IMG/VR virus record: IMGVR_UViG_3300032770_000007
Coordinates: 1 to 64,000 of that record
Strand: one strand, 5' to 3'
Source of the DNA: a virus
Length of the DNA stretch: 64,000 nt
The first letter of the stretch is position 1; each line of letters begins with the position of its first letter. The notes beneath the pieces were generated by a model, which saw only the letters and a program-made list of their open reading frames with translations, made no database searches and had not been told where the DNA came from. This document shows positions 17,429 through 48,967 of this stretch, piece by piece. Both the position numbers and the translations under genes were made by a program.

Positions 17429-17669
17429 TTCCACCATCTTTTCTTTATTGGACGAGGAGTATATGTACCCAAATTCACTATACACATCATCCTACAAAAG
17501 GGACAACGAAGAGTCACGTAATCAGGCACAGTTCTAGTAGCATTATGAAACTTGCCTTCAGTTCCATGAAAAGTAAACTCAGTAGCACAACAACGGCATT
17601 TACCACGATATTCGTGTTCCCAGGGCAACTTACCTTGTGTGATGATTTTCAAAAGAACTCCATAATAAA

Positions 17670-17920
17670 AGGTGGCGTATGAGTAACAGAGAACACCACC
17701 AGAAACTCTGGATTCAGCTTTAGGCTGCTAGTGCCATTTCTGGCAAATCGAATGCATCATCGTCGTTTGCATTTAACGTTTTGTGCTGCTTAGGGCAGTC
17801 ACCTGTCCGGTAGCCATTGATTTATTCCGCGCCCAATCGAAACCTGGTCATCCCCATATGGTGGAGATGTGGGGAATCGAACCCCAGTCTTGAACGATTT
17901 TAGTCAACAGTTATACTACC
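17670..17920 (-). ncRNA. ssrA: Two-piece (circularly permuted) tmRNA; tag ANDDDAFDLPEMALAA
   Basis: Acceptor piece (TGGGG-TTCGATT-CCCCA, CATCTCC-ACCA ending 17859) precedes the coding piece starting GGGGATG at 17855; G3:U70; tag at 17770-17720; outer ends approximate. Confidence 0.9.
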
Positions 17921-17951
17921 ATCAGAACTATTTAGTTTACTACAAATATCC

Positions 17952-18194
17952 TTAAAAGTCAATCATTTCCATGGTGTTTATCTCTTCCTCTTGTTGTTCG
18001 TACTTTTCATAAAGTTCTGCAAGTTGATTGAATGCCGAAGCCACGCATTTGGCTTGTTGTTCTGCTAATATTTCTTCATTAGATACATAATATCCAACTC
18101 CAGGAGAATAACGAGCAGGATCATATGGTTTCAAATAACCTTTAGCATACTCTCGTAAAACTTCAGAAAACTTGGGTCTCATATTTCTTTTCAT
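17952..18194 (-). CDS. Hypothetical protein
   Basis: ORF in operon orientation. Confidence 0.45.
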   Translation of the reverse strand: MKRNMRPKFSEVLREYAKGYLKPYDPARYSPGVGYYVSNEEILAEQQAKCVASAFNQLAELYEKYEQQEEEINTMEMIDF

Positions 18195-40704: not shown

Positions 40705-40814
40705 TCAATATTTAGGGTTTCAAACTACCTCTTGTTCAATGAGGATCGCCTGCCAGCGACTATACAACACATAGGTGGCAGCCAGGATAAGTTGTATTAG
40801 AGTTTGAAACATTC

Positions 40815-40888
40815 TGGTAGTGAAGGATGGTTATGCTCCATCGTCTATGGCTTATGAAACCACCGCTCTCCTATTGAGCTACTTCACC
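40815..40888 (-). tRNA. tRNA-Met/Ile2(CAT), elongator type
   Basis: Loop TT-CAT-AA; T-loop AGCATAA. Confidence 0.85.
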
Positions 40889-40976: not shown

Positions 40977-41052
40977 TGGTAGGTCCAGTCGGAACTGCCC
41001 CGACATCCAACACTTTAAGAGAGTGAGCTCTATCTGATTGAGTTATGGACCT
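40977..41052 (-). tRNA. tRNA-Lys(CTT)
   Basis: Loop CT-CTT-AA, CCA. Confidence 0.85.
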
Positions 41053-41879: not shown

Positions 41880-41955
41880 TGGACTCCCTGACTGTCAGTT
41901 CAGTCTCAGCTGCAGCTGGCAAACTTCGCGTTCTAGAAAGGCAAAGTGCAGGGAG
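41880..41955 (-). ncRNA. CCA-terminated tRNA-like RNA without a recognisable anticodon arm
   Basis: CTCCCTG/CAGGGAG-T-CCA terminal stem with adjacent ACTG/CAGT hairpin. Confidence 0.55.
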
Positions 41956-43870: not shown

Positions 43871-44566
43871 TTACTTGACTGATAAATCTTTGACGAGAGC
43901 CTTACGCATTTTCTGCCTAATAGCATCCATGTAACCATTTTTACGAATGTGCTTATAGGCCAGATTGGTTTCATCAAACTCTGAATCACCCTTGGCGCAA
44001 ATCTCTGCTCTCTTATCTTTGATAGAATCTTTCAGTTTATCTAACTGCTGATAGCTTGCTTTGGGATCTCTTACAAGATCAACTATTTTCTTGCGCCATC
44101 TGTCAGCAATCCCAGCTACCTTGTCTTCATCAAAATCTGGTATCTGATATTCTGGTTGAGTAACCCATTTGTTGTCTTTGATAGAATACTCTCCATCAGA
44201 GCCAGCCTTGCTGTCTAGATCACAAATGGTCATTTCCATGGGAATACCATAGATACGAATATCATGATCACGTTTGAATAGTTTCTTCTTTGTTTCAAAG
44301 AAGTTCTCTAAGAGGTCTTTGTTGGCTTTCTTGAAATCAGCCATGTCAACATAGATATTAATGTCTATATCTGACTTGGCTGTCCAAGTATAATTTGCCA
44401 TGGAACCAACTAGTCTGATGTCTTTTGTATCAATAGGAACACCACAAAAATCAATGAAGGTATTCACAATAGCCAGGAGACCCTTACGGACCTCTGGTTT
44501 CATTTCCATGCCATCCCAAATCTTAGGACAGAGGGTTTTGTGATATTCAACTTTGATGTCTGCCAT
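43871..44566 (-). CDS. Pol-beta-superfamily nucleotidyltransferase
   Basis: LVGSMANYTW..KSDIDINI (GS-x-DxD); start ATG 44566 after CATAAATA promoter (ORF-track extension is inside tRNA-Glu). Confidence 0.8.
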   Translation of the reverse strand: MADIKVEYHKTLCPKIWDGMEMKPEVRKGLLAIVNTFIDFCGVPIDTKDIRLVGSMANYTWTAKSDIDINIYVDMADFKKANKDLLENFFETKKKLFKRDHDIRIYGIPMEMTICDLDSKAGSDGEYSIKDNKWVTQPEYQIPDFDEDKVAGIADRWRKKIVDLVRDPKASYQQLDKLKDSIKDKRAEICAKGDSEFDETNLAYKHIRKNGYMDAIRQKMRKALVKDLSVK

Positions 44567-44583
44567 GAGACTATTTATGGATT

Positions 44584-44660
44584 TGGTAGACCATGAGAGT
44601 GCTGCCCTCTCTATTTCGCCTTGAAAGGGCGATGACATAGCTAACGTTGTCTAATGGTCC
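44584..44660 (-). tRNA. tRNA-Glu(TTC)
   Basis: Loop CT-TTC-AA; D-arm identical to Glu(CTC). Confidence 0.88.
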
Positions 44661-45587: not shown

Positions 45588-46145
45588 AAAATTTATCAAA
45601 TACGTATCTATCCTTGATTGTATTTGATCTCTAAATCTACTATGAATATACTGATGATGAGTTGGGCATAATGGAACCAAATTTTCTGGTCTGTTATCTT
45701 CATGATTTTCATTTACATGGTGAGCGGCAACTATATTTTGCTCGCTACAGATCAAACATTTTTTGCCATGATGCCTAAAACAAATCGTTCGATAGGTCAA
45801 CGATTCTTCATTTTGAGAAGAACCTCTTGGCTTCAAAAGATTAGAACATTTATAAGAACAAGTTACATTTTGTGCATAGTTCTTTATAGGAACATGACAT
45901 ATAGGACATAACTTTGTATTCAATGGATTTAGATAACAAAATGATTTATGTCTCATTATCATGGATCTTGAATATAATTTATTACAATAATCGCAGTTCT
46001 CTTTTATTGTAGTAACATTTACACCATTCTTCATCAAGTTGTTGACATTTACAATCCGTTCTGGATTTTGCTTACAACGAATTTGATGTTGTACTTGCTG
46101 TTTTCTATTCTTATTTGTTCGATTACAAAACTTACATTCTAACAT
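45573..46145 (-). CDS. HNH endonuclease with zinc-finger repeats
   Basis: CxxC/H repeats, HH.NENH.DN..ENL.PLCPTHH..IH; late promoter at 46173. Confidence 0.8.
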   Translation of the reverse strand: MLECKFCNRTNKNRKQQVQHQIRCKQNPERIVNVNNLMKNGVNVTTIKENCDYCNKLYSRSMIMRHKSFCYLNPLNTKLCPICHVPIKNYAQNVTCSYKCSNLLKPRGSSQNEESLTYRTICFRHHGKKCLICSEQNIVAAHHVNENHEDNRPENLVPLCPTHHQYIHSRFRDQIQSRIDTYLINFRSVK

Positions 46146-46180
46146 ACATCATCCATTTTAGTCAGGCTGATGTATTTAGT

Positions 46181-46256
46181 TGGTCAGGATGAGAGGACTC
46201 GAACCTCCGATTACGTGCGCCCAAGGCACGGGCCATAGCCACTAGGCGACATCCTG
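46181..46256 (-). tRNA. tRNA-Pro(TGG)
   Basis: C1-G72, loop CT-TGG-GC. Confidence 0.88.
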
Positions 46257-46272
46257 GGCAAAAGATTAAAAT

Positions 46273-46349
46273 TGGTACACGCGACTGGACTTGCGCCAGT
46301 ATATCCCTGCTTGTAGGGCAGGTCCGCACCTATTTCCGGACACGCGTGC
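46273..46349 (-). tRNA. tRNA-Val(TAC)
   Basis: Loop CC-TAC-AA. Confidence 0.85.
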
Positions 46350-46422
46350 GCTGAAAATAATTGGCCCTCTTATCCTAAAGGGCAAAGGTTCAACTGAACT
46401 CTGACATTCTGTTGAATGTAGT

Positions 46423-46497
46423 TGGTGGACCGTAGCGGTAACGCTCCGCTTTCTCCGCGGTGCAAACGCGGCATAATACCTTCTATACTAACAGCCC
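46423..46497 (-). tRNA. tRNA-Ala(TGC)
   Basis: G3:U70, loop TT-TGC-AC. Confidence 0.9.
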
Positions 46498-46502
46498 AAA
46501 TT

Positions 46503-46802
46503 TGGCGCGGCGGTATTGACTTACATCAATGCACTTATCGTCCAAAGCCTGCTTGTTCAGGCAGGATGGCCGCATATATGGAGCGGCGGCACTGATAAAT
46601 CAGTACACTTACCTTCCTAGAGCACGAAACAAGTTTCGCGCTGTCAGCGTAGGATGGCCGCATATATGGCGTGGTGTGAGGAGTGTATGCCCCAACTTAC
46701 CAACCATCTCCTGATGGTTGACCACATAAAATGGCGTGGCGTTGCTACTTATTCCTAGCAAACTTACCGACTGAAGGCAACATAAGCTACCTAGTAGGCC
46801 AC
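46503..46802 (-). ncRNA. Array of four related CCA-ended non-cloverleaf small RNAs
   Basis: Units 46503-46573, 46579-46661, 46667-46725, 46732-46802: GYGGY..stem..RTAAGT..hairpin..C-RCCRC-N-CCA. Confidence 0.8.
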
Positions 46803-46810
46803 ATATAAAA

Positions 46811-46897
46811 TGGTGAGTGTCGTAGGAATCGAACCTACTCAGTCATAAGACAGCAAGGTTACAGCTTGCTGCGCCTCTCCAACTGCGCCGGACACTC
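46811..46897 (-). tRNA. tRNA-Tyr(GTA)
   Basis: Loop CT-GTA-AC, long V-arm. Confidence 0.9.
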
Positions 46898-47276
46898 GAT
46901 ATTCGTTCCATTTGTTACCAACAACTATTGATGATCTAACACCAATCAAAGCACTTTTTGGTATCAAATATTCTTCCCCAGATTTTGTAATCACATAAAG
47001 AATATCATAATCCAACTCATTAGCATATTTTTGAACTTTATCGCCCAAAGATCCACCAATCAATCTCAGTTCAACTATATAAGTTGATTTTGTTCTACCT
47101 ATCTGTGATGTAGTCTTAACTTGAACCTTTTTCAAGGTTCCATTATCATCAATAATCAAATCATAATCCTGACTATCCGTCAAAGGAATAGCAACTGTAT
47201 AACTACGACGTGTAAAATACGCGATAGCTGACCCTAGACCATAATCACCTTGCTTTTTACTATTTTTGAAATTCAA
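46839..47276 (-). CDS. PD-(D/E)XK endonuclease (PDDEXK_5-like homing endonuclease)
   Basis: K.QGD.G, P......YDLIID...L.KVQVKT, YLIP; TTG start after GGAGGT. Confidence 0.8.
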   Translation of the reverse strand: MNFKNSKKQGDYGLGSAIAYFTRRSYTVAIPLTDSQDYDLIIDDNGTLKKVQVKTTSQIGRTKSTYIVELRLIGGSLGDKVQKYANELDYDILYVITKSGEEYLIPKSALIGVRSSIVVGNKWNEYRVSGAVGEAQQAVTLLSYD

Positions 47277-47342
47277 AATACCTCCCGAAAATGAACGGTC
47301 TTTGAACACCTAAGTTCGGGAAGGACCGTGAGCCCATGTATT

Positions 47343-47420
47343 TGGAACCCCCGACAGGACTCGAACCTGCATGTATCTGGGTAGAAACCAGAGCCGTTAT
47401 TCCATTCCGGTCACGAGGGC
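47343..47420 (-). tRNA. tRNA-Arg(TCT)
   Basis: Loop TT-TCT-AC; body nearly identical to Arg(ACG). Confidence 0.88.
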
Positions 47421-47425
47421 AAATT

Positions 47426-47501
47426 TGGCTGCTTTGGTAGGACTCGCACCCACAACCTCCTGATTAACAGTCAGGGGCATCTACTTTGATACTACAAAGC
47501 A
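47426..47501 (-). tRNA. tRNA-Asn(GTT)
   Basis: Loop CT-GTT-AA, G73. Confidence 0.9.
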
Positions 47502-47503
47502 AT

Positions 47504-47578
47504 TGGTGCCTCATCTCAGACTTGCGCTGAGTTCTGCGGCTTACAAAACCGCTGCATCGCTATCTATGCTTATGAGGC
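47504..47578 (-). tRNA. tRNA-Thr(TGT)
   Basis: Loop TT-TGT-AA. Confidence 0.9.
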
Positions 47579-47582
47579 GAAA

Positions 47583-47992
47583 TAGTGCGGTAGCAATCCA
47601 TGGGGCACAACCACTTCTAACGCTACCGGAATCTGTGCCATCTACCATTATAACTAATAATCAACAATGTATAATCATAGACTGTGAGTTTCCTGCCTGA
47701 CTCGGACATTCGGCAAGTCATGGAGTTATTTCCACTTATACACGCGACTATGGGAAAAACATTTTTTTTCAAATCAACTGCTAGGAGATACATTTTTCCA
47801 ATAACCTCGGCAGTCAATGGTCTCCATGAAAAAAGGTAGAGACCAACCCCAAAATGCTTCTGTTTTCAGTGGAGCACTAATAGGCTTACCCACGTGGCTG
47901 GCACAACAGGTTGCTACCTCTGTTGTGAGTTCCATGCTGGCTTCCGGTTTCGGTTGATGTCCCTAGTGCGGTTGAACCAACATCCCAATCAA
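47583..47992 (-). ncRNA. Unassigned ~410-nt structured RNA heading the tRNA operon
   Basis: Consecutive hairpins, two loop-complementary pairings, no credible ORF, directly after an early promoter. Confidence 0.55.
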
Positions 47993-47999
47993 GAGACCT

Positions 48000-48028
48000 A
48001 TTATAGGTCTAATCATTCAAAAAGTAAA
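48000..48028 (-). promoter_or_regulatory. Early promoter TTTACT-N17-TATAAT for the ncRNA/tRNA operon (tandem N16 copy at 48064-48091)
   Basis: Same -35/-10 as the other copies. Confidence 0.7.
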
Positions 48029-48274
48029 GTATAATATTGTCTCCTTCAACTTCAAGAAGGCATATTATACGTCAAAAATCTACTAAGTAAAGCTTATTTA
48101 GCCCAACAATATCAATCAGTTATACAATATCAAAACAAGTTATTGATTTTCAATCAAATATAGTCTGCTGCTGTTTCGGCCATCTGGATTTTATGGCCTT
48201 GCGATAAGTTCAAAGTATCGCAACTCTTGAAAGCGAGAGGCACGCAGCAACTCCTTGGTGTTTATTTAGCTGGC

Positions 48275-48967
48275 TTAACATGGATTTTTGATAACAACAC
48301 AATCTTTGTAACCAGGAACATGACCAAATCCGCAATCACAACAAAATACTTCTCGAAGACAACCTTCCATTATTTTATTATGACTAAAGCCACACTGTGG
48401 ACAAAAACTTTCTTTCAACTGTTCAGATTTTTCATGAAACGGATTTCTTGCCTTAGATTTCGTAACAGTTTTTCTAGTGCGTCGTTTGATAGACGTGCTG
48501 CGCCTTTTGGACTTACGTGTATTTCGCTCCCTGACTTTGTTAACATAACGTTCCTCAAGTTTCTTGAAATTTGTTTGTATAATCTCTTTGAGAGGGATCT
48601 CATACCTATTAGCAAGCTTGACAATATAGTATAATACATCGCCCATTTCCTCTTTCAACTTTTCTTTGTCTAAAATGTTTTTCTTTGGATCTCTGGCATG
48701 CTTCTTTAGCAATTCAAGAACTTCACCACATTCACCAGCCAGACCCATGGCCATGATATAATCATTTCTCCAGGACTTCCTACTATACTTTCCATATCCC
48801 CAGATATGTTCTACCCAGGCACTGAAAGCCTTTAGAAATGCTTCATCGCTATAGTTCAAATAACTATGAAAGGATACCCTAAGTTTGATATCTTCAATAT
48901 CCTGCATCAGATAACCCTCAATGAAACCAATACTATTGTCAGGAAGCCCATCAATACCAAAATCCAA
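48275..48967 (-). CDS. MazG-like nucleotide pyrophosphohydrolase
   Basis: MGLAGECGEVLE..KK..RD, EEMGDVLYY, N..KL..RY. Confidence 0.85.
   Translation of the reverse strand: MDFGIDGLPDNSIGFIEGYLMQDIEDIKLRVSFHSYLNYSDEAFLKAFSAWVEHIWGYGKYSRKSWRNDYIMAMGLAGECGEVLELLKKHARDPKKNILDKEKLKEEMGDVLYYIVKLANRYEIPLKEIIQTNFKKLEERYVNKVRERNTRKSKRRSTSIKRRTRKTVTKSKARNPFHEKSEQLKESFCPQCGFSHNKIMEGCLREVFCCDCGFGHVPGYKDCVVIKNPC

Follow-up and report, generated by a model that had tools for sequence, protein, structure and literature searches.

Four tandem units of 59-83 nt, located between tRNA-Tyr and tRNA-Ala in a phage genome, carry the ends and spacers of tRNA genes but not the cloverleaf, and share a common three-way junction. 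We think the chances somewhat better than even that these units are non-decoding small RNAs with a tRNA-like maturation, that is, RNAs of the same kind as RNAC and RNAD of phage T4.

Four units with tRNA-type punctuation lie between tRNA-Tyr and tRNA-Ala

The array comes from a virus record of 125.8 kb, estimated to be 69% complete and obtained from a wetland metagenome, which encodes a T4-type capsid protein 56% identical to cyanophage capsid proteins. The stretch of this record that was analysed, 64,000 nt in length, is referred to below as the window. About 33 tRNA genes, in which the CCA is encoded, lie in this 64-kb window, which also contains a permuted tmRNA and, besides endonuclease ORFs, a small nucleotidyltransferase gene among the tRNAs. 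The array of four units occupies positions 46503-46802 of the minus strand. It is listed here with its surroundings from upstream to downstream (P1, terminal helix; P2 and P3, first and second hairpin).

48000-48091, minus strand: two promoter-like sites, TTTACT-(16 or 17 nt)-TATAAT, upstream of the operon
46839-47309, minus strand: PD-(D/E)XK endonuclease ORF (Pfam PDDEXK_5), just upstream, its end overlapping tRNA-Tyr
46811-46897, minus strand: tRNA-Tyr(GTA) with encoded CCA, upstream neighbour of unit 1
46803-46810, minus strand: A/T spacer UUUUAUAU, 8 nt, from the tRNA-Tyr CCA to unit 1
46732-46802, minus strand: unit 1, 71 nt; P1 GUGGC/GCCAC, discriminator G, CCA; RUAAGU twice (linker and P3 loop)
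46726-46731, minus strand: spacer after unit 1, 6 nt
46667-46725, minus strand: unit 2, 59 nt; P1 GUGGU/ACCAC, discriminator G, CCA; shortest P2, an 8-bp hairpin
46662-46666, minus strand: spacer after unit 2, 5 nt
46579-46661, minus strand: unit 3, 83 nt; P1 GCGGC/GCCGC, discriminator U, CCA; longest P2
46574-46578, minus strand: spacer after unit 3, 5 nt
46503-46573, minus strand: unit 4, 71 nt; P1 GCGGC/GCCGC, discriminator G, CCA; linker AUAAGU, with GUAAGU in the P3 loop
46498-46502, minus strand: spacer after unit 4, 5 nt
46423-46497 including CCA, minus strand: tRNA-Ala(TGC), downstream neighbour of unit 4; matched by Rfam, missed by ARAGORN
46364-46383, minus strand: weak terminator-like hairpin with a U-rich tail, after tRNA-Ala (3 such sites found, 2.1 expected)

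Read from the 5' side, every unit shows a U at -1, a G at +1, the 5-bp GC-rich P1, a C, and a variable P2 whose final G pairs with that C; this C:G pair closes P2 in 4 of 4 units. The 3' half is composed of an unpaired G-RUAAGU, the P3 hairpin (5-7 pairs across the units), a lone C, the 3' strand of P1, a free base and CCA. The hairpin loops are 4-8 nt long and not conserved in sequence. Conservation across the units is seen in their ends and in the core of the junction; the tips of the two hairpins vary freely. Pairwise identity among the four copies is 49-65%, the GC content of the units is 0.49-0.55 (versus 0.377 for the genome), and a 19-nt exact repeat spans both the unit 2/3 and the unit 3/4 joints.

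Most of these elements had been named in the original prediction, namely the terminal stems (GTGGC/GCCAC, GTGGT/ACCAC and, twice, GCGGC/GCCGC), the N-CCA, the C that opens P2, three GTAAGT linkers and one ATAAGT, a second hairpin and a single C, and all of them are present as described. Two ranges had to be corrected: spacers of 5-6 nt are right for four of the five (6, 5, 5 and 5 nt) but not for the first, which measures 8 nt, and the second hairpin, said to have 5-8 bp, is found in every unit but with 5-7 pairs.

The units and the neighbouring tRNA genes share their punctuation (T-1, G+1, CCA, A/T spacers), just as the resemblance to tRNA genes in spacing and ends had been noted at the outset. 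A T at -1 is found in 4/4 units and 22/28 tabulated tRNA-type genes, and a CCA end, with an A/T-rich spacer following, in 4/4 and 26/28, respectively; all five A/T spacers of the array terminate in U ahead of G+1. As the punctuation is shared, and promoter-like sites lie upstream of the operon while none was found on the minus strand within the array, the units look like members of a polycistronic tRNA transcript. The other flanking ORF is weakly HNH-like.

Several further observations concern the tRNA region as a whole. A 255-aa ORF among the tRNA genes (43871-44638, minus strand) gives a weak NTP_transf_2 nucleotidyltransferase match (22.9 bits; cut-off 21), and its product, judged by this match, could act on RNA 3' ends. 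The tmRNA is a circularly permuted, two-piece one (window positions 17629-17969, minus strand; RF04321 at 142 bits). Four Rfam tRNAs were missed by ARAGORN (46426-46497, 47507-47578, 40818-40888 and 40980-41052, minus strand), the tRNA-Phe that ARAGORN places at 40770-40851 on the plus strand is doubtful, and many tRNAs of this and related phages have unusual T-loops. Between tRNA-Ala and tRNA-Pro there is a 79-nt CCA-ended cloverleaf-like RNA (46273-46351, minus strand) with a 7-bp end stem and a 4-bp middle arm with a 6-nt loop, called neither by ARAGORN nor by Rfam. Finally, a 76-nt CCA-ended non-cloverleaf unit (41880-41955, minus strand) stands directly ahead of tRNA-Leu(CAA); it came up in the census of CCA-ended units described below.

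The units match no Rfam family

A match to a known Rfam family had been named beforehand as an outcome that would speak against the original prediction. When the whole window was searched at the gathering score, no family was matched by the units. An additional scan of positions 46100-47000 at E<=10 returned from RF00005 only the three flanking tRNAs, again leaving the units unmatched by that family, and the sole sub-threshold match over the units was Yfr1 with an E of 7.5. An RNase P RNA was recovered neither in the window as a whole at the gathering score nor in 47500-48300 at E<=10, and for positions 47583-47992 (minus strand) the Rfam search at E<=10 gave two noise hits only. Membership in RF00005 was defined as a cloverleaf of at least 29 bits with the Rfam model. 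ARAGORN, run in the standard, -mt, -mtx and relaxed modes, called no tRNA in the units either, and hence the proposed non-cloverleaf nature is borne out by both approaches.

On one hand, the likeness to tRNAs (RF00005) is considerable: it comprises G+1, a terminal helix, a discriminator, an encoded CCA, A/T spacers and the position in a tRNA operon. On the other hand, the end stem of the units has 5 bp instead of the 7 bp of tRNA, and they have no D, T or anticodon loops and no 7-nt loop at all. Armless mitochondrial tRNAs differ as well, in that the units remain uncalled even in the mitochondrial modes of ARAGORN. Covariance models of Y RNA/YrlA, of the tRNA-like domain of tmRNA and of other tRNA mimics in Rfam gave no match in 46100-47000.

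Two other readings were considered and ruled out. RNAs of ToxI-like type III toxin-antitoxin systems are near-identical short tandem repeats beside a gene for a ToxN-type endoribonuclease; here, the units are 49-65% identical, the neighbours are PD-(D/E)XK and weakly HNH-like, and no ToxN-type gene is found next to the units. A protein-coding role was discarded because the ORFs that overlap the units do not exceed 61 aa. The literature searched, which was without supplements and most of the subscription papers on T4 RNAC/RNAD, contained no description of RNAs of this kind.

The family appears confined to one genome in the collections searched

We searched for relatives with two covariance models. 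The first, built from the four units, scores them at 60-81 bits. The second, a sensitivity control built from three units, recovers the fourth one (31.3 bits, E 8e-6) and nothing else in the window, and therefore members as diverged as these paralogues should be detectable. The four-unit model yielded nothing credible in 103 other viral records or in 83 + 51 loci (about 1.29 Mb, T4 included). It matched 0/5 records in one set, 0/50 in a further one and none of the 83 loci (768,072 bases); the 51 loci (520,063 bases, T4 included) gave one match (E 9.3, 10.5 bits). Among 49 records, searched with locus L137 left out, three were matched at E<=1, namely the own genome and two weak matches of 16.1 and 14.5 bits. 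Both of the latter were rejected on reading, since one starts at the ATG of what looks like an ORF and its counterpart is devoid of a CCA end. The covariance-model search of phages and Rfam suggested together with the original prediction thus brings back the four units, but neither a credible relative nor an Rfam family.

Other search strategies led to a similar picture. In blastn of positions 46100-47600 against 50,697 phage records, matches were confined to the tRNA-Tyr and tRNA-Pro parts; phage Moby shares the tRNA-Tyr (83%), with tRNA-Phe directly after it. The 25-base 3' end of tRNA-Tyr is not repeated exactly anywhere else in the viral collection. Searches for relatives with the capsid protein provided 34 loci, and those with the MazG and nucleotidyltransferase proteins none. 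Two core patterns were found in 28 and 8 viral stretches, a number in the range of chance level by rough arithmetic; all 36 were folded and read, and each of them lacked both the A/T spacers and the layout of P2 and P3; most lay in GC-rich DNA. The pattern TAAGT...C-6N-CCA-spacer-tRNA-Ala occurred in 2 viral and 9 metagenome stretches, and 11/11 proved on reading to lie outside a tRNA context, while the tRNA-Ala pattern covered at least 120 stretches. A census of CCA-ended units near tRNAs that ARAGORN does not call gave, among the matches listed, mostly odd tRNAs.

The closest complete relative (G001; 76% capsid identity) has the same tRNA order. The slot between its tRNA-Tyr and tRNA-Ala (L074, 2696-2961) is occupied by another kind of branched RNA, which is about 190 nt long, lacks a CCA end, is closed by GUGGUAU/AUACCAC, has a fold z-score of -2.6 and matches nothing in Rfam; smaller hairpins come after it. 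The absence of the units from this syntenic slot means that the family is not conserved even at short range, and the slot seems to take different RNA modules in different phages. With no relative found by model, pattern or blastn, the family is, as judged from these comparisons, an orphan within the collections searched, present in one genome only.

Two groups of elements met during these searches deserve mention in their own right. The first is a conserved element of about 45 nt, located directly 5' of the same tRNA-Ala in six distinct contexts (L077, L078/L188, L140, L146, L149 and L168). It reads CGCC-TTGACTNN-GGCG-TAYAATGAG-ATAAGTA, then RTAAGT or ATCAGT, with covariation between GACTK and MAGTC. 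The element, which has the ATAAGT string in common with the units, may represent either a promoter (TTGACT, 17 nt, TAAGTA) or a small RNA with a pseudoknot. The second group comprises CCA-ended units of 65-69 nt (L085, 7544-7609; L146, minus strand; L166, 502-567; L120, 4571-4637; L119, 4588-4656) whose end stem has 6-7 bp and whose D arm is nearly absent; they also show a 7-nt loop resembling an anticodon loop, and their discriminator is U. Not called by ARAGORN, these units may be D-arm-reduced tRNAs, Gly-like.

That the four units are missing in G001 is what would be expected if they were dispensable. One could regard them as decayed tRNA relics which are kept, similarly to t-elements, as punctuation guiding RNase P and RNase E, with the excised RNA being inert. 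The tRNA-type flanks and ends of the units fit this explanation, as does the site, which has a tRNA on either side and an mRNA-like ORF upstream; moreover, t-elements are known tRNA-like processing signals according to the available part of a report on them (PMC1920247). However, the two flanking tRNAs already supply cut sites, to which four tandem copies add nothing, and no residual tRNA similarity is left in the units (no RF00005 match at E<=10). In addition, the G-RUAAGU, the C:G pair and the lone C are invariant at 49-65% identity and a second RUAAGU occurs in two P3 loops, which argues for selection on more than the ends. We consider the relic explanation unlikely.

RUAAGU is single-stranded in all predicted unit folds

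The most conspicuous internal element of the units is RUAAGU, found at the following positions.

46762-46767, minus strand: linker of unit 1
46695-46700, minus strand: linker of unit 2
46607-46612, minus strand: linker of unit 3
46533-46538, minus strand: linker of unit 4
46747-46752, minus strand: second copy, P3 loop of unit 1
46519-46524, minus strand: second copy, P3 loop of unit 4

These are six occurrences of RTAAGT in 300 nt, while about 0.19 would be predicted from the genome rate of 0.00063 per nt. The motif had been counted once per unit, four times in total, and this count turned out to be too low due to the P3-loop copies in units 1 and 4, in which the last U begins the 3' strand of the stem. 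As RUAAGU is single-stranded wherever it is found in the predicted unit folds, it is the best candidate for a contact site, and on this modelling the likely contact for a putative partner. A promoter reading of RTAAGT in the units was rejected, there being no -35-like element at a fixed distance (judged by eye).

A more specific idea is that the units are look-alikes of tRNA-Tyr, in which RUAAGU copies the U-GUA-A of the anticodon loop and draws off nucleases directed at this tRNA. The units do follow tRNA-Tyr directly, and its anticodon loop, CUGUAAC, can be compared with the UGUAAG of the P3 loop in unit 4. The string in common is, however, only 4-5 nt long, the linker of unit 4 has AUA and not GUA, the linkers are junction strands rather than 7-nt loops, and the discriminators are G or U while the phage tRNA-Tyr has A. 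As regards known defence systems, the accessible text on Retron-Eco7 reports that its PtuAB destroys tRNA-Tyr and that phages answer with extra tRNA-Tyr (PMC11555353). Septu is a second system that destroys tRNA-Tyr and is countered by additional tRNA-Tyr; the part of the source at hand describes escape via an amplification for which a homing endonuclease of the tRNA cluster is responsible, but also cutting in the variable loop and not in the anticodon (PMC13096335). An endonuclease ORF adjoins our array too, yet its copies are old paralogues and not the product of recent amplification. Taken together, we find the tRNA-Tyr look-alike improbable. We would give a similarly small chance to a new anti-defence decoy, in which the tRNA-matured scaffold with its RUAAGU would soak up a nuclease or toxin attacking tRNA-Tyr or tRNA 3' ends. 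If the decoy reading were true, part of the phage tRNA array would be bait, not spare parts.

Compensatory changes preserve a common three-way junction

Folded singly, all four units adopt the three-way junction, either as the minimum-free-energy or as the centroid fold, with modest z-scores (-1.3 to -2.9). In the model-fitted alignment of the four units, 57 of the 58 pair cells (98.3%) hold standard pairs and 9 of the 15 pairs are changed on both sides, so the covariation of the copies claimed in the original prediction is borne out. The compensatory changes preserve strand-specific pairing, G:U pairs included, and P3 keeps its pairing in all units in spite of a wholly different sequence from one unit to another. 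Pairing falls to 28-59% when partner columns are slid by 1-3, and the covariation score was equalled by 0/500 column shuffles; these controls lean toward structure, since the structure was derived from the same four sequences. A descriptor of the whole architecture found exactly these four matches in the own genome (125,827 bp) and two, AU-rich and unconvincing, in other phage loci (1,744,159 bases). As no homologue was found, conservation of the fold rests on four paralogues in one metagenomic contig.

The fold also bears on whether the units might be chargeable, minihelix-like adaptors, with a synthetase aminoacylating the CCA end and the amino acid being used outside the ribosome. A free N-CCA on a GC-rich helix would suit such a role. 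P1 plus P3, with about 10-12 stacked pairs, would come to roughly the length of the acceptor/T-arm helix. Nevertheless, the bulged C breaks the P1/P3 stack, and there is no aminoacyl-transferase gene among the ten ORFs scanned. Acceptor-stem identity rules are exemplified by G3:U70, and neither this nor any other known identity set was recognised in the units. Such adaptors are therefore very improbable in our opinion. An equally poor prospect is the absence of any RNA function, with the array being a DNA-level repeat (a recombination or homing-endonuclease substrate) or chance hairpins: the region is indeed flanked by endonuclease ORFs and has the 19-nt repeat at two joints, but the compensatory changes maintain strand-specific pairing down to G:U, the descriptor finds practically nothing in 1.74 Mb of control DNA, and the punctuation is that of transcribed tRNA genes.

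Non-decoding tRNA-end mimics are the favoured reading

Returning to the small RNAs with tRNA-like maturation, an undescribed and probably processed family is the best reading of the array, because the units are non-cloverleaf, match no Rfam family, covary and share tRNA punctuation. The proposal of an undescribed processed small-RNA class thus holds as to the family being undescribed and, on the sequence features, as to processing being probable, but "class" is too strong a word for a family found in one genome only.

The following scenario can be proposed. The array would consist of four old paralogous small-RNA genes embedded in the polycistronic tRNA operon of the phage, keeping only those tRNA features that serve end maturation, i.e. 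U-1, G+1, a GC-rich helix, discriminator-CCA and an A/U trailer. Host RNase P would cut at G+1, and RNase E together with exonucleases would trim the 3' side to CCA. For E. coli, the available part of the source states that RNase E cuts A/U-rich sequence just past the encoded CCA and that RNase P makes the 5' end (PMC2190699). By analogy, we infer a 5' G and a 3' CCA as ends of the released units. Efficient recognition by RNase P is an assumption here, given that P1 has 5 bp and the tRNA stem 7 bp. The presumed transcription, processing and stability would give stable RNAs of 59-83 nt unable to decode.

The RUAAGU, in one or two copies per unit, would then contact a partner, and the units would, as their most probable role, act as a multi-copy mimic of the tRNA acceptor end that titrates a protein; this could be a phage factor, or else a defence enzyme or toxin of the host that is directed at tRNAs. 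That the ends and the junction core are conserved fits maturation of the tRNA type followed by recognition via the acceptor-like end and RUAAGU; the variable hairpin tips are at odds with an RNA acting by base pairing of its loops. At least four putative binding sites in tandem suggest titration, and we infer from this a protein-sponge role. It is the combination of conserved ends and core with tandem sites that makes us favour non-decoding tRNA-end mimics that would sponge a protein.

Clusters of tRNA genes in phages are now viewed as counter-defence loci, and the non-tRNA RNAs inside them are unexplained. The array described here is a compact and tractable case, as it offers four natural variants with a minimal conserved core and the rest variable; the core (5-bp stem, C:G pair, RUAAGU, lone C and N-CCA) marks what must be recognised. 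If the units are processed and bound by a partner, then phages build non-decoding mimics of tRNA ends, and the array gives a handle on how such RNAs act. Should they serve as punctuation only, they would mark the minimum of tRNA features with which the maturation enzymes can work.

Relation to T4 RNAC and RNAD and to t-elements

RNAC and RNAD of phage T4 have been known for decades without a function. As the parts of two sources available to us state, the T4 tRNA cluster yields two small stable RNAs whose role is unknown (PMC3014915, PMC9697503). Like our units, RNAC (species 1) and RNAD (species 2) are small non-tRNA RNAs in the tRNA cluster of a T4-type phage, lie on the tRNA strand a few bases from tRNAs and are adjoined by a homing endonuclease gene (segB); RNAD, moreover, ends in ...CACC(A). 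They differ in being 139 and 119 nt long, single-copy and otherwise folded, and the four-unit model gave no match in the T4 locus (L214), so no homology to RNAC or RNAD was seen. A side observation is that RNAD (L214, 3054-3172, minus strand) has GGTAAGT directly after its first hairpin, near the 5' end. This 7-mer is also present in units 1-3, but that of RNAD is not placed between two junction hairpins, and the coincidence may be due to chance.

The t-elements of plant mitochondria are tRNA-like processing signals and, as far as the accessible portion of their description goes, tRNA-like structures that do not decode and are presumably cleaved by the enzymes of tRNA maturation (PMC1920247), in which they resemble the units. 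However, t-elements mark the ends of mRNAs, whereas the units stand four in tandem between two real tRNAs and carry a conserved internal motif. The general kind of RNA to which we assign the units, that of T4 RNAC and RNAD, is long known; the fold they share is undescribed.
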